Position numbers and translations under genes: made by a program. The notes under the pieces were generated by a model. That model was given only the letters and a program-made list of their open reading frames with translations. It had not been told where the DNA came from and did no database searches. Below are positions 2,054 through 14,359 of a stretch of DNA of 64,000 nt, piece by piece. Location of the stretch: IMG/VR virus record IMGVR_UViG_2698536484_000026, one strand, 5' to 3'. This DNA is from a virus. Taxonomy: Duplodnaviria; Heunggongvirae; Uroviricota; Caudoviricetes. Every line of letters begins with the position of its first letter. Within the stretch, counting starts at the first letter, position 1.

Positions 2054-2697
2054 TGGATTACCGGATTGGGATCACTGGTGCTCAGGGCAGTGGGAAAACA
2101 ACCCTGGCTAAATATATCGACAAACATTACGGAATCCCTTACGTGGATGCTGGTGTCGGAAGTTTGATGAGCCGCCTCGGTGTTCGAGTAGGTGAGTCTA
2201 TGCCTCTATATGAGCGGCTTCAGATTCAAATGGAAATAGCAAAGCACATAGAGCTACTTACGCGTGGTGTTGAAGGCTTTGTTATCGATCGCACACCTGC
2301 TGATGTTATGGCCTACACGTTGGATTTGGTCGGCCATACAAATGAAGAGCGGTGTATTGAGTTAGCCCTCGATATCGAAAAGTTTTGCCACAAAACTGCC
2401 ATTTCAAACTTTAACGCCATTGCTGGCTTACGCCCGGGAGTCGCTCTCTCAGAGCGAGATTACTTGCGATCACAACGAGCATCATTAGACCGTCTGTATG
2501 TTGCTCGTATTGATGCGTTGATGTGCGGGGAACTGACAAAAATTCACCTGCATCCGCAAAGGGGAGATCTGCAAACCTTCGTCGTTTCCAACCGATATCG
2601 CACGGTTGAAGCAAGAGCCAGATCAGTGATGAGAATGCTAGATAACGCTGTAGAAAAGATAGAAAACCGGTTCTGTGGCCGAGTGACCGTTCATTAG
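2053..2697 (+). CDS. P-loop nucleotide kinase (putative dNMP kinase)
   Basis: Walker A GITGAQGSGKTT at N-terminus; sits in nucleotide-metabolism cluster. Confidence 0.5.
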   Translation: MDYRIGITGAQGSGKTTLAKYIDKHYGIPYVDAGVGSLMSRLGVRVGESMPLYERLQIQMEIAKHIELLTRGVEGFVIDRTPADVMAYTLDLVGHTNEERCIELALDIEKFCHKTAISNFNAIAGLRPGVALSERDYLRSQRASLDRLYVARIDALMCGELTKIHLHPQRGDLQTFVVSNRYRTVEARARSVMRMLDNAVEKIENRFCGRVTVH

Positions 2698-2758
2698 AAA
2701 TTGTTCGCCTCTTCTACATTGCGACAATAAAACTCTCAAAATGGGTTAAGGATAAAAA

Positions 2759-3178
2759 ATGTTTAGTGAAATGTTGCTTGAAGATGAACTGGATCGGAAA
2801 ACAACAGAGGCTTTGATTCGTGTAGCGGACGAACATTCCCGGTCGCTTATGAGCGATCGAGAGGCTCGTCTGGCTATTCGTGCCATATTCGAAACTGCGC
2901 AGGGGCTTGTTGGTACACAAGTGGGTGAAGCCATTAACATCGCCATGTCTCAGTTCAGTGAAGGCAGTAAAAAGCCTCTGTTTCCTATGCATTTGATGCT
3001 GGCTGGTGGCACGGTGCTTTATATCTCTGTTTGTCTGGATAGCAACCAAATCAATATTCTCAACACTGTGTCAGGTAAGTGGAAAGATCCGATTGTCTGT
3101 GAAACCAGTGAAGAAACTTTGAAAAAAGCGGCTCAATTTGTACGTAGCGCACTACTTAAGGGCGCTAAGAAGTTGTAA
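2759..3178 (+). CDS. Hypothetical protein
   Basis: ORF with AGGA-type RBS context, same strand as operon. Confidence 0.4.
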   Translation: MFSEMLLEDELDRKTTEALIRVADEHSRSLMSDREARLAIRAIFETAQGLVGTQVGEAINIAMSQFSEGSKKPLFPMHLMLAGGTVLYISVCLDSNQINILNTVSGKWKDPIVCETSEETLKKAAQFVRSALLKGAKKL

Positions 3179-3187
3179 GGAGTAGTA

Positions 3188-3982
3188 ATGGGACAACCGG
3201 TAGACATAACAGGTAAACGTTTTGGAAAGTTGGTTGCACTTAAATATTCCGGTATTTCAAACAAACAAGGGCGACTTTGGGATTGCATCTGCGATTGCGG
3301 CAACACCTGCCTGGTTAGTTACGGGAAGCTAAATCACGGGGCGACAATATCGTGTGGCTGTGTCTACAACGCACATCGCCGTAGCGTAAAGCCTCATGGT
3401 ATGAGTAAAACGCCAATTTATCGTATATGGCTGGGTATGCGGGAACGATGTGAAAAACCAACCCATCACGCCTATAAGTGGTATGGCGGCCGAGGTATCA
3501 AAGTCTGCGAGCGGTGGCAAATATTTGAAAACTTTTATGCTGACATGGGAGAGCGACCAGAGGGGATGTCTCTTGATCGCAAAGATGTGAATGGTGACTA
3601 CGAACCTGAAAATTGCAGATGGGCGACTTTTGAAGAACAGGCCAATAACACGCGTTCAAACTTAATTTTGGAGCATAAGGGGGAAAAGCTGACTCTCTCA
3701 CAATGGGCTAAAAGAGCCGGGATTCAGACATCAACTCTTCACTATCGAATCAAGAAAGGGTGGCCATTAGATCGCGCGCTTAACGCCAGCGTCGACACGT
3801 ATGCCAACCGAGATAGTAAGCGTCTGATCGAGTGTCGCGGCAGAACTCAGCGAATTACCGAATGGGCTAGAGAGGTTGGCTTGACTGCGACCATTATCTC
3901 GCAGCGAATTTTGAGGGGGTGGGATGTTGAAGCTGCCATCTTCACACCGTCCAAACGACCAGTAAAAGGAGATAAAAAGTGA
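3188..3982 (+). CDS. HNH endonuclease (phage homing-endonuclease type)
   Basis: YRIWLGMRERC and NGDYEPENCRWATFEEQANNTR motifs typical of phage HNH endonucleases. Confidence 0.65.
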   Translation: MGQPVDITGKRFGKLVALKYSGISNKQGRLWDCICDCGNTCLVSYGKLNHGATISCGCVYNAHRRSVKPHGMSKTPIYRIWLGMRERCEKPTHHAYKWYGGRGIKVCERWQIFENFYADMGERPEGMSLDRKDVNGDYEPENCRWATFEEQANNTRSNLILEHKGEKLTLSQWAKRAGIQTSTLHYRIKKGWPLDRALNASVDTYANRDSKRLIECRGRTQRITEWAREVGLTATIISQRILRGWDVEAAIFTPSKRPVKGDKK

Positions 3983-4527
3983 TTGCTACAGGGGTGGACA
4001 TCGAATCAACAGGTCTTGATTTCCTCTCAGGCCATAAAATCATTGAAATCGCAATGGTGAAGTACGAAATTGAGACACAGACAATGGTTGATAGTTTTGT
4101 AATGCGGTTCAACCCGCGTCGCAGTATCGATCCGAAAGCGCAAGCGGTACACGGCATCAGTCTTGAAGATTTAGCCGCCGAGCCGTTACTAGCCGATCAC
4201 GCTTCATCTGTCGCTTCGTATCTCTCTTCTTCCGATATTTGGATAGCCCACAACGGCGAAGCGTTCGATATTCCGTTTATTAGGCATGAGCTGAAAAGTT
4301 ACGGTTTTTCGCTTCCAGACATCCCATTGATTGACACTCTATTTTCCCTGTGGGCCACAGAAGACGGTAAACGTCCCCGCCTTGAAGAGTTGGCCTTCTC
4401 TCTTGGCTTTATATACGATCATGCCAAAGCACATAGTGCCTTATATGACACAAACTTAATGATGCAATGCTTCTTTAAGGCACGTAATAAGTACGGATTT
4501 TTTAAATTACCCTCTGAAATTGTGTAA
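3979..4527 (+). CDS. DnaQ-like 3'-5' exonuclease (DEDDh)
   Basis: Exo I DIESTGLD, Exo II IAHNGEAFDIPFI, Exo III HSALYDT. Confidence 0.7.
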   Translation: MIATGVDIESTGLDFLSGHKIIEIAMVKYEIETQTMVDSFVMRFNPRRSIDPKAQAVHGISLEDLAAEPLLADHASSVASYLSSSDIWIAHNGEAFDIPFIRHELKSYGFSLPDIPLIDTLFSLWATEDGKRPRLEELAFSLGFIYDHAKAHSALYDTNLMMQCFFKARNKYGFFKLPSEIV

Positions 4528-4533
4528 AACAAA

Positions 4534-4570
4534 AGCCTACTTTAAAAAGTTTAAAGTAGGCTTTCTTTTA
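4534..4570 (+). terminator. Rho-independent terminator-like hairpin
   Basis: agcctacttta/taaagtaggct stem followed by T-rich run. Confidence 0.5.
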
Positions 4571-4685
4571 AAGAACAGTCGCCTTTCAATCATTTCCTGC
4601 CTGTATTTAATACTTTTCCGCCTGATAGGTTTAGTCAAAATGTAGCCATCGAAACGCAAATGCAACTAAACAGAAGGAGACTTAC

Positions 4686-5495
4686 ATGAGTTCGGTTGAA
4701 AATGTAATGACAAATGATGATCTGGATGAGCTGACAGCCATGTTGCAATCACTTGATGAACCAGTAAAAAAAGCTGCACAGGTTGAAAATACTGATGATA
4801 TTGACGATCTGCTTCTCGGCCTCGATGCTGGCGTAGCCATGAGTTCTGATGATGTTGCCGAAGAACTGTTCAATGAAGAAAAAGCAGGTGATTTCAGCTC
4901 CGCTTTAAATGAGTTGGAGTTAGCTCATGAGCCTATAAACGTAATTAAGGCTGAAAGTGTTGAATCTGCCGAAAACGAGCCAGAACAATTGGGATTTATT
5001 GAGGTTGAAGAGTGTGTTGAGGTTAATGATGAATTAAAAGTTCAACAGTCAAATGATAGCAATACAAATAAAAAAGCTCGTACTGCAAGAGGTCCTCGTT
5101 TTACTTTAAGTGATAAAGATTATTTGTTTTTCAATAAAGCAGGCTTAGAAAAAGATATTTTCTTAGACGCTTACGAAAACGCGCCTGTCAAAGCAAAGGA
5201 TAAGATATTAAACCTTCTTAATTGGTTTAGCGGAGGTCCAGATATTAGTGTTTACACGGTAATTTCCATGAGACACCTTCTCACAGAAAAGAAGGCTACA
5301 AGTAATAGTATTAAGATTGCTTTAATGAGCAATCCAGAAAAACCGTATCCGCTTAACACTGCGTCAACTCAGGCTGGGCAAATGATGGCTGTATTTCCAG
5401 CTACAGGAATTGCTGTTAGAGACGGTGGAAATCTAACATTGAACGAAGAATCACCGATCGTTAAGAAGTTTGTCGCGGAGTACACTATTGGATGA
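4686..5495 (+). CDS. Hypothetical protein with highly acidic N-terminal half
   Basis: About 120 aa D/E-rich N-terminus, basic C-terminus; RBS GGAGA upstream. Confidence 0.45.
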   Translation: MSSVENVMTNDDLDELTAMLQSLDEPVKKAAQVENTDDIDDLLLGLDAGVAMSSDDVAEELFNEEKAGDFSSALNELELAHEPINVIKAESVESAENEPEQLGFIEVEECVEVNDELKVQQSNDSNTNKKARTARGPRFTLSDKDYLFFNKAGLEKDIFLDAYENAPVKAKDKILNLLNWFSGGPDISVYTVISMRHLLTEKKATSNSIKIALMSNPEKPYPLNTASTQAGQMMAVFPATGIAVRDGGNLTLNEESPIVKKFVAEYTIG

Positions 5496-5677: not shown

Positions 5678-6271
5678 ATGATTGCAGCCGAAAAAATCAA
5701 ACAGCGAAAGCGCGACAACTCTCTTCGTGACCTCTGGAGAACACCTGATTGGCTGTTTTCTGCCATTCAACGTTATCTTGGAGTGACATTTGATGTTGAC
5801 GTTGCCTGCAACAAGGACAACGCAAAGCTGCCTAATTTCATAGGCATTGAGCGTGATGCTTTGAAATCTGAATGGGGACAGCCAGGTACAATTGCCTTCC
5901 TCAATCCACCCTACTCCAAAATCTCCCCCTGGATTGATGCTGCTATACGTGAGCAGGCTCGCGGAGTTACAACAGTGATTCTAATTCCTCAATCCCTCGA
6001 TACAAAGTGGTATGAGCGTGCAACAGAGTATGCGAATGAGACGATTATTCTGTCTGGTGGCCGCGTAGCGTTTGTCGAGCCTGACGTCAATTTGGGTCAG
6101 GTAGAAGTAAACATCAACCCCGGTGGCAGTATGCTCGTTGTTTTTCGAGGATTCTGTCAGGACGCTGGGCACTCTATAAGCAAGATCCCTTTGGACGTCA
6201 TGAAAAGTCTGGGAGGGTATGATCCTGCGAATGTGGTCAGGAAAAAAAGACCATCAAAGAAGGCTGCTTAG
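5678..6271 (+). CDS. Phage Dam-like DNA N6-adenine methyltransferase
   Basis: DLWRTPDWLF and LNPPYS motifs. Confidence 0.7.
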   Translation: MIAAEKIKQRKRDNSLRDLWRTPDWLFSAIQRYLGVTFDVDVACNKDNAKLPNFIGIERDALKSEWGQPGTIAFLNPPYSKISPWIDAAIREQARGVTTVILIPQSLDTKWYERATEYANETIILSGGRVAFVEPDVNLGQVEVNINPGGSMLVVFRGFCQDAGHSISKIPLDVMKSLGGYDPANVVRKKRPSKKAA

Positions 6272-6292
6272 TTTGTTCTGGCGTCTGTAATT

Positions 6293-6351
6293 AGCCTGCT
6301 TCTGTATATATAAATAACTACATATTAATTATTAATATACGGAAGCAGGCT
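6293..6351. repeat. Large inverted-repeat element (copy 1 of a conserved element)
   Basis: Perfect 10-bp arms AGCCTGCTTC / GAAGCAGGCT around a 39-nt AT-rich loop containing CTGTATATATAAATAA; repeated at 37413-37461. Confidence 0.5.
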
Positions 6352-6456
6352 GTTTTGTATCAGAGACTCCAGACCTGAACATCACTACAGAATCCACTAG
6401 AACCCTTCCCAGACGCTTTAAAATCGATTTTATGAACCACTTTAAGGAAAACTAAC

Positions 6457-6687
6457 ATGCCATACCCGACCAATGTTGTTGCGCTCGTAGAGAGCGATTT
6501 TCTGGCTAAGGCTCGTGAAATGATGAAAGATCGCGAGCAGGCTTTCAACTTGTACGAATGGGCAATTAAGTGCTTGCATCTTGGGGAGCATCGCGAACTT
6601 GTTGAACAGCTTTTAGGTGAGTTGATCAACGAGGTGTTTGCCTTGAATGTTCAACTACATGGTCGAGAAAATAATCAATCGAAATGA
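6457..6687 (+). CDS. Hypothetical small protein
   Basis: ORF with RBS-like AAGGAAAA upstream. Confidence 0.35.
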   Translation: MPYPTNVVALVESDFLAKAREMMKDREQAFNLYEWAIKCLHLGEHRELVEQLLGELINEVFALNVQLHGRENNQSK

Positions 6688-7271
6688 TAGATAAGTACAA
6701 ACTATTCATAAGATGAATTGTAAGTGCTAAGATCTGATAGTTTCCAGTCGTAGACTGGAGACTCGACCTGATGGGTGGGGGTAAGCGTCACTGGCGTCAG
6801 GTTTAAAAAAGTTCACTACCAGCGTAGAACCGGTGCCGTTTAGGTGTCGGGGAAGGGGGAACCAAAGTGAGCGGAGACAAGGGTCACTTTATGATTGTCG
6901 AGTCTGGGGTGTTTCGAGAGGTTGAATCCAGTACTCCCCTTCATAAAGTGTGGGAAGATCTCGGTTCTGGGGTGCTGTCATCCATAACTTCCCAAGTCTA
7001 AGCTGGCAGTAGACTTAGACCATAACTTTTCAGGTTATGAAACGACCAGGTTGGTGAGGGATTTTTATACTCACCTCCCTGGGAGAGTATTACCTGAAAA
7101 GACAACCTCTCACTTCGTTCGAGGTGAACTTCACTCACTTCGTTCGTTCAGTTCAGGTTTATAAAAACCTGTTCTGGGAAGTAATTTGTTTATTTTAATA
7201 ATTATTAACACGCACGCGTGTGCGCACGCGCGAGGAAAAAAATCGGCGCGGCGCTTGATTCAGGAGTTTAT

Positions 7272-7865
7272 ATGACGACGAAGACACCAGCCCGATCGCA
7301 AGCAAAAACTCGCAAAAAAGCCAAAAACAAAAATTCTCCCCGCACCAATCCCACAACGCCTGTCGTAGAGTTCAATCCCCAGCTTAAAACCGTGAAAATC
7401 TTCAGTGATGGCTCTTGCCTTAAAAATCCGGGTGGCCCGGGCGGTTACGGTATCGTTCTTCAGTATCGTGGAGAGGAACGCGAGTTCTCAGATGGTTTTC
7501 ATAGCACCACCAATAACCGCATGGAGATGATGGGGGCACTTATCGGGCTGGAGCGTTTGAAATATCCATGCAACGTTATTTTACACTCTGATAGCCAGTA
7601 TCTGAAAAACGGCATGACACAGTGGATGAAATGGTGGAAACGCAATGGATGGATGACTTCTGACAAAAAACCGGTAAAGAATGTTGATCTGTGGAAGCGT
7701 CTGGATGAGGCCGCAAGTCGACATAATGTTCGCTGGAAGTGGGTTAAAGGTCACGCCGGGCATCGTGAAAATGAAATATGTGATCGACTCGCGAAGATCG
7801 CAGCTTTTTCAGCAGCAGATATGCCTCACAAGAAAGATATTGGTTTTGTTTATAACAAGCGGTAA
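7272..7865 (+). CDS. rnhA: Ribonuclease H (RNase HI-like) with basic N-terminal extension
   Basis: [52 protein letters not shown] match RNase HI. Confidence 0.75.
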
Positions 7866-8010
7866 GTAAGTGTTTACCTATCATTTTAAATCATGTATCT
7901 TATCGGCGTCAGGATGACAATGTGTCGGTAAGACACAGTTCCAGGATGGAACGAGAAAGGCGGCTGGCAATCGCCAGCCGCAACTCTTTCTGACACTGGA
8001 TGGAGTCCAC

Positions 8011-8505
8011 ATGGCACGTCAAACCTATTTCACTTCTGCAACTAAACGTCCTCGTTCTTTACGTCAAATTTTGGCCGAATTATTTAGCGGTCGTGTTATG
8101 TCACGTCTTGATGAACTAGAGACTACCGTTCGGTTGCTGAATGAACGTTTAGATAATCAAGCGTCAGTTGTTGCGAACGTGGGGGCGATTGTTGCCTCTG
8201 GTTCTTCACGCGAAGCGAAAAGTACACGGCCTTTAGTGAAGGAGAAAAACAACAAGGACAGTTCGAATGGAAAATTTTCAAAGAAAGAGGCTGAAACCAA
8301 TGGCCTACGTTCTCATTATAGTTTCACTGGCGACGGTAGCCGTTCCAGCCGGCCAGAGCCTTTTGATGCCGGATTCATCCATCACCACACCTTCGTCGAC
8401 GACAATTACCACCACTCCAGTGGAGCGTCCTGTCACTCTGGATGGGATGGCGGTGGATGCGATACCTCAAGTTCATCCAGTTACTCAGGATCATGCTGTG
8501 ACTAA
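8011..8505 (+). CDS. Hypothetical protein (C-terminal part questionable; overlaps next ORF in another frame)
   Basis: Good RBS and coiled-coil-like N-terminus; C-terminal 60 aa looks like out-of-frame low-complexity translation. Confidence 0.25.
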   Translation: MARQTYFTSATKRPRSLRQILAELFSGRVMSRLDELETTVRLLNERLDNQASVVANVGAIVASGSSREAKSTRPLVKEKNNKDSSNGKFSKKEAETNGLRSHYSFTGDGSRSSRPEPFDAGFIHHHTFVDDNYHHSSGASCHSGWDGGGCDTSSSSSYSGSCCD

Positions 8506-8518
8506 GGCGGTTGTATGA
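8267..8518 (+). CDS. Small membrane/secreted protein
   Basis: Hydrophobic segment MAYVLIIVSLATVAVPA; stop overlaps next start (ATGA). Confidence 0.35.
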   Translation: MENFQRKRLKPMAYVLIIVSLATVAVPAGQSLLMPDSSITTPSSTTITTTPVERPVTLDGMAVDAIPQVHPVTQDHAVTKAVV

Positions 8519-8703
8519 ACTGGTTTTCAAATCACTTTGGAAAAATTTGGCTGGCAATTCTTGCCCTCATGGCCGCCGGTTGGGTATCGAACATTATAAA
8601 ACTTGTTTGCTCTGGCGATCTCCAGTTTCAGGCTGGCATGACCTTGGCTCGTGTAGTTGGGATTTTTGTTTTTCCAGTTGGTTCGGTACTTGGTTATTTC
8701 TGA
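8515..8703 (+). CDS. Small membrane protein (two hydrophobic segments)
   Basis: IWLAILALMAAGWV and VVGIFVFPVGSVLGYF hydrophobic stretches. Confidence 0.4.
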   Translation: MNWFSNHFGKIWLAILALMAAGWVSNIIKLVCSGDLQFQAGMTLARVVGIFVFPVGSVLGYF

Positions 8704-8796
8704 CGGCTGTTAGTGCATATGCATTGACCATCTCTGCGTAAGCAATTTATGTAATTAGAAAACAACTTGTTTTGACAAATAATAAAAGGAAAACAC

Positions 8797-9222
8797 ATGT
8801 TAGGTTTCTTCAAAAAGAAAACTCGTAAAGCTGTTATCGAAGTCAAAAAAATGGAGAACCGTGATGCGGTTGAGGCCACCGTGTGGGGCGCGTACATGAT
8901 CTCCTATGCCGACGGCACATGTGACGCAAAAGAAATTGCCATTCTTGAGAAGACAATTGCAGCTCTGCCTGCGTTTTCTCCGTTTGCTGGTGAAATTGCC
9001 CAAATGAGCGCCAATATCCGTGCTCGTTACGAAGCGTCCCCTCGTTCTGCTAATGCACAGGCTATTCGTGAGCTGTCTGATATTGCGGGTACTCCAGAGG
9101 CGGTCGATGTTCTGTGTCTGTGCCTTGATATTGCCGATCAGGACGGCATTGGTGAACAAGAAGAGCAGGCACTGAAAAAGATCGCCCAGGCGCTTCAGTT
9201 GTCACTGGATGCTTATCTCTAA
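8797..9222 (+). CDS. TerB-like domain protein (tentative)
   Basis: YADGTCDAKEIAILE...DIADQDGIGEQEEQALKKIA resembles TerB-fold pattern; preceded by AAAACAA-N-TTGTTT motif. Confidence 0.45.
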   Translation: MLGFFKKKTRKAVIEVKKMENRDAVEATVWGAYMISYADGTCDAKEIAILEKTIAALPAFSPFAGEIAQMSANIRARYEASPRSANAQAIRELSDIAGTPEAVDVLCLCLDIADQDGIGEQEEQALKKIAQALQLSLDAYL

Positions 9223-9381
9223 TGCTTGAGAGATTCCGGCTTGTGATCGTCATTGCTCTTCTGGTGATGGCGGTGTTGGTGGATTTTACGGGAAAGATGA
9301 TGTCTGTCATTTCTGATGGCGTCCTCATTGGTTTGGCGATCTACTTCGCTTATCCGTTAGTTCGTAAAGCAAAGTGCTAAT
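9223..9381 (+). CDS. Small hydrophobic protein (52 aa)
   Basis: Mostly hydrophobic; ATG abuts previous stop; followed by terminator hairpin at 9383-9403. Confidence 0.3.
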
Positions 9382-9519
9382 GACAAGGGCCAAATGGCCC
9401 TTGTGTTTCGTTGACCGAAATAGAGAGTTTGCACCTTTACGTTTAGCTTGCTCCCCTTTTATGCCACATCACAATAAAGCCAATAAGAAAACAACTTGTT
9501 TAAGCATTAGGAAAAACAC

Positions 9520-10086
9520 ATGTGCAAGAAATGCAAAGCGATAGCTGATGAACAAAACGCCTTATTCGAAGAAATGGATGCTAATGAACTGGTCAAAATG
9601 TTAGCCATTCTTCGAGGAATAGAAGACGTTTCCATATTTGAGAGAGTGGTTACAGCACTTAATTATGAGTCCGCCTTTGAAGAGCCAACTCAGATTGTAG
9701 CTTTAGCACATCATTTCGGTGTTCATTATCTTGCTGAAAAAGAGAGAGCTGATAAGTTGCAAGCGACTTTGGATATGGTGAGCGAGACTCAAGGATCTCA
9801 TGACGGTAATAAAAGTGAGACGATTATTGCCAGCAAAGATCGTGAAATTGCCGGGCTTAAATCCTCTCTAACGATGTTGATGTCTGCAATTAACCTTATG
9901 TCTTCTAAAGCAGGTTATAAAATGCCATCACTAAACAGCGACGATCCGATGGCCGTTCGCCAGCTTTTAGGTGCAATGGCCGACCAGCTCGACGACACAA
10001 AGAGTCGCCTTGAAGACATGATGCGGGAGCTCACGCATCGCCATGACTTGAATAAGCAGCCGCACAAAACGCAATACGCACTCTAA
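9520..10086 (+). CDS. Hypothetical protein
   Basis: ORF preceded by conserved AAGAAAACAACTTGTTT motif and RBS; terminator hairpin 10104-10119 after it. Confidence 0.45.
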   Translation: MCKKCKAIADEQNALFEEMDANELVKMLAILRGIEDVSIFERVVTALNYESAFEEPTQIVALAHHFGVHYLAEKERADKLQATLDMVSETQGSHDGNKSETIIASKDREIAGLKSSLTMLMSAINLMSSKAGYKMPSLNSDDPMAVRQLLGAMADQLDDTKSRLEDMMRELTHRHDLNKQPHKTQYAL

Positions 10087-10227
10087 TACTGCACCAGTCG
10101 ACAGGGGGCGAAAGCCCCCATTTTTACGCCTTAAATCTGCTGTAACGCCTATGAATGCAGCTTTTATGCCTTTTCAAGTTTGCGATAATTACACCAATCA
10201 GAAAACAAATTATTTAATGGTGTAATT

Positions 10228-11913
10228 ATGAATACAGCCCTTTCTATCATCGACGATGCCAGCTCAAACACGGCTATCGACTATCGTCAGGAAATGAATG
10301 TCATCCACGAAATCGTGGCCGAGTGCGAGAAAGAGATCGCCTTCATGTATCAGGTACACGACTTCGTTTATGGCGACGAACGCCACAACATGATTAATCG
10401 CCTGCTGAGACTAAACCATCGACCAGATGAAGATCGCTCGCGTTTAAATCGAGGTTGGTTGGATAAAGTCGATCTGGAATGGGTGAAACAGAATATTTGG
10501 GCCGAGTACTGGAGGAAGGTCACGGACATGACTAACGTTTTGCTGATCATGCCAGCTTCCCGTCGAGATGAGTGGCGCGAGCAGTTTATAGAGGGCAAAC
10601 AGGAAGTCATCAAAACTGACAGAACCGGCTACCAGATGAAGGTTAAAGAGTTCGTTGGTGTACCGGAGTTCAAAGCAGAAACGGTCATACCCACGATGCT
10701 TAATTTGCTGAATGACAGGCACAAATATCTCTCTGAGCGCGTGTATGGCTTGTTTAAGGCGCTGAGTCCTGCGCACAAGACAAATAAGACAAACGGTTTC
10801 AGCGAGCGTCTGATAATCGCTGACTGCATTTCTGATTTCTGGCGGGACAGCGTTAGCGTGAACTATCGCAAAGAGGACTACATCGACGATCTGCGTGTCT
10901 TGCTTCATTTCTTCGCGCACAAAGAATTTATTACCATCAACCGCACTGCTGAGGTGCTATCAGCTGCGTATAGGGCAAACGACTGCCAGACCGGTGACTG
11001 GATGAACGTCGATGGAAATCTGATGCGCGTGAAGATGTTCAAGAACGGCAACGTTCACTTTGAAATACATCCTGACGTGGCCTGGAAGTTGAATGAGGTG
11101 CTGGCTTACAGTATGCCTGCTGCAATCCCCGCGCCATGCCGAACTGCGCCAAAAACACGGGCACCAAAGCAGTTCGGTTTAATCCAGAAGACGATCTCCG
11201 TGCCGGTTCGCACTGCGCTTCGTGACGGGCGATTGAGCAAAGACAAAGGCGTATGGTACTTCTCTGATTCAGCTCTCCAGAAGTCGCAGGTGGAAGAGCT
11301 TGAGCGCACACTTAGCTTCATTGGCGGCGTGCAGGAGAAAAAGCACTGGCAGTTCCCGTATGAGATCGGCCATACGCTAAATACGATTGTGGCTACCGGA
11401 TTAATACCGGATACAAAATCACACCAGTTCTACCCTACCCCACGCTTGATTGCTGAGTACGTTGCCAGAGCCACTGAATTGAAGCCTGGTGAGAAGCTGC
11501 TGGAGCCTCAAGCCGGACGTGGGGAGCTTCTGGCCTATATTAACGCCGATCTGGAAGATGTTACCTGCATAGAAATCGCACCTCTCTTCGCTGATATCCT
11601 GCGTGGAAAAGGGTATACGAACACGATTTGCTGCGACTTCATAAAGTGGTCTGAGGACAACGCAGGTTATCAGTTCGACAAAATCGTTATGAACCCGCCG
11701 TACTCGCTTGGTCGTCATAGAGAGCACACGATGGCTGCGCTGGGGCATCTGAAAGTCGGCGGGCGTCTTGTAGCAGTATTGCCGGGCACTGCGCCAATAC
11801 TGGACTGGATGACGATGGATAATTACGTTTATGCCAGAGGGAAGTCGTTTACCAACGAGTTTGAAGATACCGGGATCACAGTCAGCGTATACGTTTTCAA
11901 ACGCGTTAAATGA
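10228..11913 (+). CDS. Putative N6-adenine methyltransferase fused to a large N-terminal domain of unknown function
   Basis: C-terminal FYPTP, EPQAGRGELL and NPPYS motifs; N-terminal 380 aa unassigned. Confidence 0.6.
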   Translation: MNTALSIIDDASSNTAIDYRQEMNVIHEIVAECEKEIAFMYQVHDFVYGDERHNMINRLLRLNHRPDEDRSRLNRGWLDKVDLEWVKQNIWAEYWRKVTDMTNVLLIMPASRRDEWREQFIEGKQEVIKTDRTGYQMKVKEFVGVPEFKAETVIPTMLNLLNDRHKYLSERVYGLFKALSPAHKTNKTNGFSERLIIADCISDFWRDSVSVNYRKEDYIDDLRVLLHFFAHKEFITINRTAEVLSAAYRANDCQTGDWMNVDGNLMRVKMFKNGNVHFEIHPDVAWKLNEVLAYSMPAAIPAPCRTAPKTRAPKQFGLIQKTISVPVRTALRDGRLSKDKGVWYFSDSALQKSQVEELERTLSFIGGVQEKKHWQFPYEIGHTLNTIVATGLIPDTKSHQFYPTPRLIAEYVARATELKPGEKLLEPQAGRGELLAYINADLEDVTCIEIAPLFADILRGKGYTNTICCDFIKWSEDNAGYQFDKIVMNPPYSLGRHREHTMAALGHLKVGGRLVAVLPGTAPILDWMTMDNYVYARGKSFTNEFEDTGITVSVYVFKRVK

Positions 11914-11974: not shown

Positions 11975-12679
11975 ATGAGCAACCTCCAGTTAGAGCATTT
12001 TAACGTCACAGGCCGTTCTGATTTTTCTTTCAAGTTTACATTGAAAGGTTATGCAGAGGATGCGGTAGGCCAGATCATTATTGATAAAGGCATCGTTAAG
12101 TTTGAGGGGGATTTTGATGAATCCGCGAAAACATTCATAGACTTCGTTGCCAAACGTTGGAGCGAGCAATGGAAAGACCTGGAAAAGCGCGCTAATGAGT
12201 TTGATCGGTTCATGGATGCAATGGATACAGCAAAAGAGGCTCTTGCTGCCGGGACTCCGTTAGATCTGGAGTCACTTTTCAACGGCGAAGTGGCCTCTGC
12301 GATGTTCGCCACCATGTTCGCGGGTGAGTTCGTCCGCAGCGGTGCCAAAAACTACCTTGAGCTGGATTACAACGTCCCTGCAATTGGCGATTTCGTCGTT
12401 ACCATCCAACGCAAAGAAGGTAAGACGCCAGGTGAACGCGTCGCAGAGCTTGAGGCTGTTGTGGATCAGCGTAACGGAGAGTGTGACCGTTTGATCAACG
12501 AGCTTCATGCACTTCGGGAAGAAAGAATATGCGCGGGTAGCAATACACGTAATGCTGCGGATATCTACTTCCAGTTAGTTGAGGAATGCCAGATTCCACC
12601 AGGTGGCTCTCTTGTCGATTACGTCAGACATTTAATGGCGGAAGTTAACTCCAGCCATAAAGATGGTGAGGTGCGCTGA
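11975..12679 (+). CDS. Hypothetical protein
   Basis: ORF with RBS; stop overlaps next start. Confidence 0.45.
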   Translation: MSNLQLEHFNVTGRSDFSFKFTLKGYAEDAVGQIIIDKGIVKFEGDFDESAKTFIDFVAKRWSEQWKDLEKRANEFDRFMDAMDTAKEALAAGTPLDLESLFNGEVASAMFATMFAGEFVRSGAKNYLELDYNVPAIGDFVVTIQRKEGKTPGERVAELEAVVDQRNGECDRLINELHALREERICAGSNTRNAADIYFQLVEECQIPPGGSLVDYVRHLMAEVNSSHKDGEVR

Positions 12680-13178: not shown

Positions 13179-13820
13179 ATGTCTAGTATTTCCGAAGCAC
13201 ATATGTTCGCCGCTGGCGCTCATGGTGGCGTTGGTCAGAAAAGAAAATATACAGGTGAAGATTATATAAATCATCCGGTTGCTGTCCGAGAGATCGTTGC
13301 ATTGCATGACGGAACCGTGGAGATGCAGATCGCGGCGCTTCTGCATGATGTGGTCGAAGACACAAATGTAACCATAGAGATGGTTCGTGATCACTTCGGT
13401 GAGCGCGTAGCTGAAATGGTTCTGGCTCTGACCAACATTGCAAGGCCAGAAGACGGCAATCGAATACAGCGTTTCATCATCAATGTCCGGGAGCTGGAGC
13501 AAAATCTCAACATGCAGACGCGCATGATCAAGCTGGCTGACCTGCTGGACAATACCTCTTCTATCGTGAGTCGCGATCCTGAGTTTTCAGCTATCTACCT
13601 TGCAGAGAAAGAACTGATGCTGGACGTACTCTTTAACGGCAAAGAGATTGGTGCCAATGCTGATGTTGTCGAGTACATGGAGAGGGTAGGTATAGAACAC
13701 CCGTTGCTATTAAGCGCAATGGCGAAAGTGACAGAAGGTATTGCGCTTCTGAAACCGGTACACATCAAACGTTATGAAAAACACAAATCGCTGATCTGGA
13801 GCGCGTGGGAGGCTGCATGA
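13179..13820 (+). CDS. RelA/SpoT-type HD-domain hydrolase (putative (p)ppGpp hydrolase)
   Basis: AHGGVGQKRKYTGEDYINHPVAV...AALLHDVVEDT matches RelA/SpoT HD hydrolase domain. Confidence 0.65.
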   Translation: MSSISEAHMFAAGAHGGVGQKRKYTGEDYINHPVAVREIVALHDGTVEMQIAALLHDVVEDTNVTIEMVRDHFGERVAEMVLALTNIARPEDGNRIQRFIINVRELEQNLNMQTRMIKLADLLDNTSSIVSRDPEFSAIYLAEKELMLDVLFNGKEIGANADVVEYMERVGIEHPLLLSAMAKVTEGIALLKPVHIKRYEKHKSLIWSAWEAA

Positions 13821-14359
13821 AGGTCGAAAAAATAGATGTTCTTTCCTTTGTGCTGACGGATCTGGAACGCCTCGATCCGGTTCGAGTGATGATTGAAAAC
13901 TACGAACCTGGTAAGGGAAGAATCACCATCACCTGCTACGGAAAAGCGTGGACTGCGGCTTGGTTTGCTATGGGCGGTGATGATGTGCAGACGTTCATCA
14001 AGCGAGTTAGCAACGACTATCTAATCGACAATTTCGACCCTCAACTGCTAAGCACGGTCGACGATGACAACGATGCAAATCTGCTTTTCGTGAAGTCAGA
14101 AATCATAAAGTTACGAAGAGAGAGAGAAATCGATGCTGTACAGGCTCGCGAAATGTGGGTCGAGGCGGAAAACGCAGATGATGTCAAAGAAAGCTGCTGT
14201 TGTCTCGGCATCGGTAACAAACTGCTGAATCTATTTGGTGATGATCCGTGGTATGCCGACTGGCCAACGATACCAAACCCGAAATACCAGTATCTGGAAC
14301 GCATTGTGAACGCGGTACGTGAAGGGCTGAAAGAGTTAGACAAGTTAGAGGCATCGTAA
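13817..14359 (+). CDS. Hypothetical protein
   Basis: ATG overlaps previous stop; part of coupled gene string. Confidence 0.4.
   Translation: MKVEKIDVLSFVLTDLERLDPVRVMIENYEPGKGRITITCYGKAWTAAWFAMGGDDVQTFIKRVSNDYLIDNFDPQLLSTVDDDNDANLLFVKSEIIKLRREREIDAVQAREMWVEAENADDVKESCCCLGIGNKLLNLFGDDPWYADWPTIPNPKYQYLERIVNAVREGLKELDKLEAS

Follow-up and report, generated by a model that had tools for sequence, protein, structure and literature searches.

Phages and plasmids escape restriction by a standard means, orphan methyltransferases, which have no restriction partner and cover the element's own DNA, as part of the literature cited in PMC11541004 describes. The DNA considered here is a 64,000-nucleotide stretch (the window) of the virus record IMGVR_UViG_2698536484_000026 (Caudoviricetes), and it carries two genes of this kind on the plus strand. 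Open reading frame (ORF) A, at positions 5678-6271, is a phage Dam-type N6-adenine DNA methyltransferase, and ORF B, at 10228-11913, is composed of a DUF4942 domain, a linker and a predicted gamma-class adenine methyltransferase core. These are further orphan methyltransferases of mobile elements, ordinary in kind, and the finding changes little in the general picture. Its useful part is the link of the N-terminal module of ORF B to the YdiA/YgfB proteins, which IncI1, IncL/M (pOXA-48) and other conjugative plasmids encode.

Several described systems resemble one or the other enzyme. M.EcoGIX and M.BceJIV, single-strand methyltransferases of leading regions, are orphan adenine enzymes that shield the incoming DNA of mobile elements from restriction and have the low specificity SAY (PMC7736820). 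Their behaviour resembles that proposed for ORF B, a likeness of function only. The mass of M.EcoGIX is low, about 26 kDa to judge by the size of its PolI fusion, and the enzyme was not reported with DUF4942. The orphan Dam-type enzymes of VT2-Sakai/Stx and T1-like phages are the counterparts of ORF A. For the catalytic part of ORF B, the comparable enzymes are M.TaqI, the HsdM subunit of EcoKI and the DarB-like polyvalent proteins, and for its N-terminal part the stand-alone YdiA/YgfB proteins.

ORF A comprises 197 amino acids (aa) and is assigned by its profile matches to the standard small phage Dam type. It matches Pfam Dam (PF05869) over positions 5-160 of 169 with E=4.3e-37 and 127.8 bits (cut-off 28.1), and the NCBI equivalog TIGR01712 (phage_N6A_met) with 112.8 bits (cut-off 97.05). 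Both curated cut-offs are exceeded, so that the Dam-like enzyme proposed in a preliminary description of this DNA is confirmed at the family level. The matches to phrog_111 'DNA methyltransferase' (3.2e-64) and to the PADLOC orphan methyltransferase models (about 1e-11) are in line with this. The catalytic motif NPPY, read from the sequence, occupies residues 76-79 (5903-5914, plus strand) within FLNPPYS (residues 74-80). ORF A shares with the orphan phage Dam enzymes the full family length, the NPPY motif, the small size, the lack of a restriction partner and the location in a phage early or replication region. It differs in being only 30-39% identical to the named enzymes, the Dam genes of VT2-Sakai/Stx phages and T1-like phages, and in that its target is assumed; by analogy with T1 and VT-2 Dam, the target is presumably GATC. 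Membership of Hia5/Hin1523 in the same family was not confirmed in PMC3299994 and is not used. A six-frame scan of the window for [DNS]PP[YFWH] in ORFs of at least 80 aa returns ORF A and ORF B only, a result far beyond chance.

ORF B comprises 561 aa and is the second, separate NPPY methyltransferase of the preliminary description. It matches phrog_6263 'DNA methyltransferase' from end to end (E=2.2e-299) and has 99% identity to a cluster of 1384 members named 'DUF4942 domain-containing protein'. The AlphaFold2 model from a 24-sequence alignment is reasonably confident, with a mean predicted local distance difference test score (pLDDT) of 81.7 and a predicted template modelling score (pTM) of 0.70. 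Conservation was taken as the mean pairwise identity per segment in alignment A1, the homologues of which are 30-35% identical overall. Residues 1-85 (10228-10482) are variable N-terminal helices with an identity of 0.28, with helices at 20-48 and 52-62 and low confidence in residues 1-16. Residues 86-305 (10483-11142) form the conserved DUF4942 module, with 0.53-0.55. Residues 306-395 (11143-11412) are a small variable alpha/beta linker with 0.32, and residues 396-561 (11413-11910) constitute, from motifs and Foldseek matches, the predicted minimal N6-adenine methyltransferase core. The identity of the DUF4942 module (0.53) is as high as that of the core (0.49). The 380-aa N-terminal domain noted earlier is thus about right in length, since the core begins near residue 396, and consists of three pieces instead of a single domain.

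The core contains FYPTP (residues 401-405), LEPQAGRG (425-432) and NPPY (489-492, within VMNPPYS; nucleotides 11692-11703). The motifs follow the expected order of TP motif with helix (X), S-adenosylmethionine loop (I) and NPPY (IV). FYPTP, LEPxAGxG and NPP[YF] are invariant or nearly so in 24 homologues, down to 34% identity. A TP motif with a capping helix ahead of the core is the signature of the EcoKI/TaqI-like clade, including the DarB-type domains of polyvalent proteins (PMC5512222). Foldseek matches of ORF B in the PDB are confined to the core, over about 170-220 columns, and comprise TrmN, PH1948, RlmLK, HsdM, M.TaqI, M.BseCI and CamA at E values from 1e-6 to 1e-8 (HsdM 2okc 1.6e-7, M.TaqI 1aqj 8.8e-7, M.BseCI 7qw5 9.3e-7, CamA 7lni 1.6e-6). 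The RNA methyltransferases score equally well in this search, and the fold does not separate the DNA and RNA classes. Sequence models favour DNA, because the PADLOC mad2 model (3.5e-16) and the Type II methyltransferase model (1.4e-10) far exceed the NCBIfam RNA methyltransferase models KsgA (0.0078) and Erm (0.01). Against Pfam N6_Mtase (PF02384) the core, as an isolated C-terminal part, reaches 18.1 bits, below the cut-off of 20.4. In PHROG, it matches the methyltransferase segments of phage proteins of two to four thousand aa.

M.TaqI and the HsdM subunit of EcoKI resemble residues 396-561 of ORF B in motif order and in the Rossmann fold. M.TaqI has a C-terminal recognition domain, whereas ORF B ends 69 residues past NPPY and has none. 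The EcoKI type relies on a separate HsdS subunit, and none is found near ORF B. With the DarB-like polyvalent proteins (PMC5512222), only the catalytic core is common. DarB is a giant protein delivered with the virion, in which an SF2/SNF2 helicase and LPD36 are fused, whereas ORF B has 561 aa and contains neither. In their place, ORF B has the N-terminal DUF4942 module. The core is complete but minimal, and it cannot plausibly read DNA alone.

The Pfam domain DUF4942 (PF13708) covers residues 140-295 of ORF B with E=1.8e-20 and 73.9 bits (cut-off 25), and all 16 members of alignment A2 match it. DUF4942 is already catalogued but experimentally uncharacterised, and it was found in the literature as an annotation only. 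The search of whole ORF B by phmmer and of the N-terminal family profile against all PDB sequences gives only noise. A separate model of residues 1-392 has a pLDDT of 81.6. Foldseek of this model finds nothing in the PDB (best E 0.74, template modelling score at most 0.14), and in BFVD only two uncharacterised phage proteins of about 250-270 aa. A known recognition domain of a characterised methyltransferase was sought at three levels, namely sequence, profile and Foldseek comparison with the PDB, and none was found. The N-terminal part is in this respect as the preliminary description had it, without a functional match at any of the three levels. Similarity of DUF4942 to known anti-restriction proteins or to PADLOC models was likewise not found. 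A His-Me/HNH-like nuclease was considered for the beta-beta-alpha element GNxHxExHP...N (266-295) and rejected, as H281 is not kept in the stand-alone forms and a nuclease fold was not found.

The combination of DUF4942 with a methyltransferase is widespread. An HMMER search with residues 1-380 of ORF B yields 614 clusters (50% identity) at E of at most 0.001, and nearly all of the best 150 are 510-580 aa long with the domain at the N-terminus. This points to a fixed architecture and not to an occasional fusion. The fusion partner is not an unclassified one-off; it is a catalogued domain and the constant partner of this clade in hundreds of clusters. The linker accompanies the core in phrog_9133, which matches residues 328-560 of ORF B. 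The 460-aa homologue of Rhizobium phage RHph_TM3_3_3 is without a linker and has DUF4942 joined directly to the core, which suggests that the linker is dispensable. An identification of the linker with LPD36 of polyvalent proteins was not supported: its conserved motif is GG and not GxG[GAS], most matches to giant proteins begin near residue 396, and the Rhizobium phage homologue is without it. In the coordinates of phrog_32703, the core of ORF B falls on positions 7-108, and short DUF4942 proteins fall on 243-474. This suggests that the reverse order, methyltransferase followed by DUF4942, also exists.

Stand-alone DUF4942 proteins are abundant in conjugative plasmids. A tblastn search with residues 1-392 of ORF B finds 4872 PLSDB plasmids, 3522 of them conjugative. 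IncI1 and pOXA-48-type plasmids carry a stand-alone protein of 282-286 aa ending near residue 303 of ORF B, the very point where DUF4942 stops in ORF B, with tblastn E values of 2.9e-10 (IncI1) and 7e-9 (pOXA-48). The short proteins match phrog_6263 with 2.4e-20 and 6.7e-18. Residues invariant across long and stand-alone forms include W95, W116, S180, T185, N186, R194, H277, P282 and N289 (alignment A3), whereas H183, R223, D262 and H281, invariant in the long form, are not kept in YdiA/YgfB. The homologous portion is residues ~46-303 of ORF B. Both forms belong to mobile elements, and YdiA/YgfB genes lie beside anti-restriction and establishment genes. YdiA/YgfB have about 285 aa without a methyltransferase part and occur in conjugative leading regions, while ORF B has 561 aa, is fused to a methyltransferase and belongs to a non-mobilizable, non-conjugative phage-plasmid.

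The stand-alone gene of the pOXA-48-type IncL/M plasmid (286 aa; locus L007, 6737-7597) is part of the leading region, where its neighbours are ssb, an antirestriction gene, a JAB/RadC gene and mobA/traI. That of the IncI1-type plasmid (282 aa; locus L008, 6824-7672) lies in the leading region between ardA/psiA/psiB and nikA. Genes of the leading region are the first that a conjugative plasmid passes to its new host. The DUF4942 family ranks 24th in leading-region enrichment, with 2171 leading and 1 lagging occurrences (PMC11541004, Supplementary Table 1). In the complete pOXA-48-type plasmid, nothing related to the ORF B core turns up (best tblastn E 0.44), and ORFs of at least 100 aa contain no amino-methyltransferase motif. 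A trans-acting methyltransferase for the stand-alone protein was considered, and none was found in this plasmid. Short forms of DUF4942 are also present in phages and in Shigella/E. coli islands, where they adjoin CbtA/CbeA and RadC. A split-gene partner was considered in Vibrio phage BT-1011, and the 163-aa gene after its short DUF4942 gene is not a methyltransferase. Functional work on the plasmid genes ydiA/ygfB was not found in the literature searched.

The long DUF4942-methyltransferase form is found in early regions of temperate phages and prophages. It is present in Pseudomonas phage phiPSA1, in a lambdoid Variovorax prophage directly past the repressor/cro-like genes, in an Enterobacterales prophage past lambda-P-like replication genes, in a Rhizobium phage, and in a metagenomic phage contig with a terminase. 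It also occurs in a large MOBH/MPF_F conjugative plasmid of 239 kb, together with a Dam-family gene, and in a Pseudomonas plasmid. Five of these loci, namely those of phiPSA1, the Variovorax prophage, the Enterobacterales prophage, the 239-kb plasmid and the Rhizobium phage, have a second methyltransferase gene within about 3 kb of the long form. Pairs in which the companion is unrelated to the long gene and belongs to the Dam family, N6_N4_Mtase or C5 type lie at 4328-5101 and 6932-8608 in the 239-kb plasmid (locus L009), 8001-10936 in locus L003, 4948-12320 in locus L005 and 2291-4248 in locus L016. With this recurrence, the two-methyltransferase arrangement of the window is typical of phages and plasmids that have the long form.

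ORF A and ORF B are both regarded as orphans, because no restriction endonuclease, HsdS or defence component was detected beside either. Among the neighbours, no nuclease or defence gene was found with Pfam, PADLOC and PHROG, and neither a restriction endonuclease nor HsdR/HsdS or Res was found beside the two genes. The flanking ORFs encode phage proteins of unassigned function, RNase HI, TerB and an HD protein. The sole PADLOC match is a weak mad1-like one at 3188-3982.

The preferred explanation of the pair, regarded as moderately probable, is orphan self-methylation against restriction, in which DUF4942 is an autonomous module for targeting or establishment. The place of both genes in the replication block of a temperate phage-plasmid suits such a role. 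The two enzymes would mark the element's own DNA during replication, so that the packaged or maintained DNA would already be protected against restriction by the current and the next host. ORF B would be a two-module enzyme with a minimal catalytic core and an autonomous DUF4942, which would bring or hold the core on the incoming or replicating DNA of the element, or on a host factor on that DNA. DNA is the presumed substrate of ORF B, the role of the pair is presumably anti-restriction, and targeting is the likely contribution of DUF4942. DUF4942 would have to contribute, since the core is complete but could hardly read DNA by itself. DUF4942 is probably not a classical variable recognition domain, because it is conserved to the level of the core, spreads as a stand-alone protein and is present in a plasmid without a related methyltransferase. 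A more specific version, in which DUF4942 is a self-sufficient establishment module that alone aids survival on plasmid entry and, when fused, directs broad methylation of low specificity to the element's DNA, is tentative and rather doubtful. Such a module might bind the DNA of the element on entry or replication, or a restriction or replication factor of the host.

Several points weigh against self-methylation with a targeting module. The single best Foldseek match of the core is the tRNA enzyme TrmN, and RNA m6A/m2G and protein-glutamine methyltransferases likewise have NPPY-type cores. The isoelectric point of the DUF4942 module is 8.4, and stand-alone forms range from 5.8 to 8.8. The module is not markedly basic, and its composition gives no support for a DNA-binding role. 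DUF4942 could also be a plain recognition domain, the high conservation of which would then reflect one shared target. The remaining point is the selective avoidance of 6-bp palindromes in the window, with 665 observed and 1003 expected. For about 20 of the 64 palindromes, base composition predicts 10-18 copies and the window has 0-2. Compared with the neighbour-context expectation, AGCGCT occurs 0 times (expected 16), GGCGCC 0 (13), CTGCAG 1 (19), AAGCTT 2 (21), GAGCTC 1 (12), GAATTC 2 (9) and GGATCC 0 (4.5), while ATCGAT, ACCGGT, TGATCA and AGATCT are at or above expectation. From this strong selective deficit, the element uses passive restriction-site avoidance alongside the two methyltransferases. 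With avoidance this heavy, the methyltransferases may serve replication, packaging or regulation.

The alternative that survives best is that DUF4942 is the target-recognition domain of ORF B for a defined sequence, with YdiA/YgfB as degenerate or re-used DNA-binding remnants. It accounts for a core that stops 69 residues past NPPY without a C-terminal domain, and for the Rhizobium phage homologue, in which DUF4942 is the only extra domain. The C-terminal DUF4942 suggested by phrog_32703 would also occupy the usual position of a recognition domain in the gamma class. However, recognition domains are normally the most variable part of such enzymes, whereas DUF4942 is as conserved as the core among homologues of 30-35% identity. 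It also stands alone in thousands of conjugative plasmids, including one without a related methyltransferase, and has no likeness to solved recognition domains. The recognition-domain alternative is therefore unlikely. Of the two roles that the preliminary description names for the fusion partner, specificity or another activity, specificity is the less likely.

Less likely again is a bivalent anti-defence protein, in which DUF4942 is an independent effector, as ArdA or KlcA are, and is merely fused to a methyltransferase. The company of the stand-alone forms suits this idea: in leading regions their neighbours are ardA, psiA/B, ssb, RadC/JAB and klcA-type antirestriction genes, in Shigella/E. 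coli islands they adjoin CbtA/CbeA and RadC, and the family shows an extreme enrichment in the leading region and T-strand. The core is moreover of the type present in polyvalent DarB-like proteins. However, the fusion to this methyltransferase clade is near-obligatory in phages (hundreds of clusters of 510-580 aa) and exists perhaps in both orders, which argues for joint action on one substrate instead of two unrelated activities. The lack of similarity to known anti-restriction proteins and PADLOC models also speaks against an independent effector.

A role of the methyltransferases mainly in the biology of the element, such as replication timing, packaging or the lysis-lysogeny switch, is improbable, and slightly more so than the bivalent protein. 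Phage P1 provides a precedent, with Dam methylation at its pac site and origin. Both genes lie in a replication and nucleotide-metabolism block, and an element that already avoids most 6-bp palindromic restriction sites has less need for Type II protection. However, GATC clusters like those of a Dam-dependent origin or pac site are absent from the window, in which no 150-bp stretch has at least 5 GATC. The enzyme family is also present in unrelated lambdoid prophages and large conjugative plasmids, which have other replication and packaging systems. Finally, a substrate of ORF B other than DNA, either a protein or an RNA (such as an adenine in tRNA or rRNA), would fit TrmN (tRNA m6A) and other RNA enzymes among the top Foldseek matches, the weak KsgA/Erm matches and the N6_Mtase score below cut-off, and is very improbable in view of the much stronger DNA methyltransferase sequence models, the FYPTP motif typical of TaqI/EcoKI/DarB-like DNA enzymes, and the repeated location next to other DNA methyltransferase genes in phage early regions.

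If DUF4942 is indeed a self-sufficient establishment module, ORF B would be a Rosetta-stone form that gives a testable function to an abundant and uncharacterised leading-region family. Both SSU5-type phage-plasmids and pOXA-48-type plasmids are vehicles of resistance genes in Enterobacterales, and an entry or establishment module shared by them would be of interest.

The window is an SSU5/pHCM2-type phage-plasmid, as judged from its plasmid and phage identities and from the same-strand gene block annotated in its counterpart. The 7.5 kb around both genes has 98.5-99.2% DNA identity to non-mobilizable plasmids of about 110 kb from E. coli, E. fergusonii and E. albertii, one of which is pECOH89. 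A protein of 'Escherichia phage CMS-2020a' is 99% identical to ORF B, and Salmonella phage SSU5 also carries the ORF B gene. Retrieval from IMG/VR yielded close SSU5-like relatives only and no further variety of architecture. Hundreds of plasmids already have annotated proteins with 99-100% identity to the two ORFs. The annotated counterpart contains, on one strand, nrdB, thymidylate synthase, DHFR, an AAA ATPase, a 3'-5' exonuclease, the first methyltransferase, RNase HI, TerB, the second methyltransferase, an HD protein and a toprim protein. Both genes of the window thus lie in a DNA-metabolism and replication module. The 3.9 kb that separate them hold unrelated genes for RNase HI, TerB, DUF3927 and hypothetical proteins. 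Of 5426 complete E. coli genomes, 251 carry the ORF B gene, and 247 of the 256 matching places are on plasmids. The other nine are chromosomal, and one of them, on inspection, is a spacer in the clustered regularly interspaced short palindromic repeats (CRISPR) array of strain AST85.

This 32-nucleotide spacer lies at the cas2-proximal end of a type I-E CRISPR array beside iap in E. coli AST85 (NZ_AP043644.1; locus L096, 1501-1533) and is identical to 10903-10934 of the window. The protospacer falls in the DUF4942-coding portion of ORF B, on the minus strand. Read on that strand, 10935-10937 is ATG, a canonical protospacer-adjacent motif of type I-E. This match is incidental.

Between the upstream gene and ORF B, a consensus scan finds a terminator-like G+C-rich hairpin followed by a T run at 10104-10119 on the plus strand (GGGGGCGAAAGCCCCC then ATTTTT), which is a pattern match only. 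From this hairpin, ORF B may be transcribed from its own start. ARAGORN finds no tRNA or tmRNA genes in the window.

The 264-aa ORF at 3188-3982 (plus strand) has weak matches to Pfam PVL_ORF50 (E 9.5e-4, below cut-off) and to PADLOC mad1, a component of a methylation-associated defence system (2.6e-6, over about 28 residues only). The genes at 11975-12679, directly 3' of ORF B, and at 13805-14359 (plus strand), 1.1 kb further, match phrog_3451 at positions 13-101 and 101-282 of 287, respectively, and look like a split or rearranged form of one phage protein. A small TerB-domain protein is encoded at 8797-9222 (plus strand), between ORF A and ORF B, and an unrelated metagenomic phage contig likewise has a TerB gene (locus L006, 16946-17383) near its DUF4942-methyltransferase gene.

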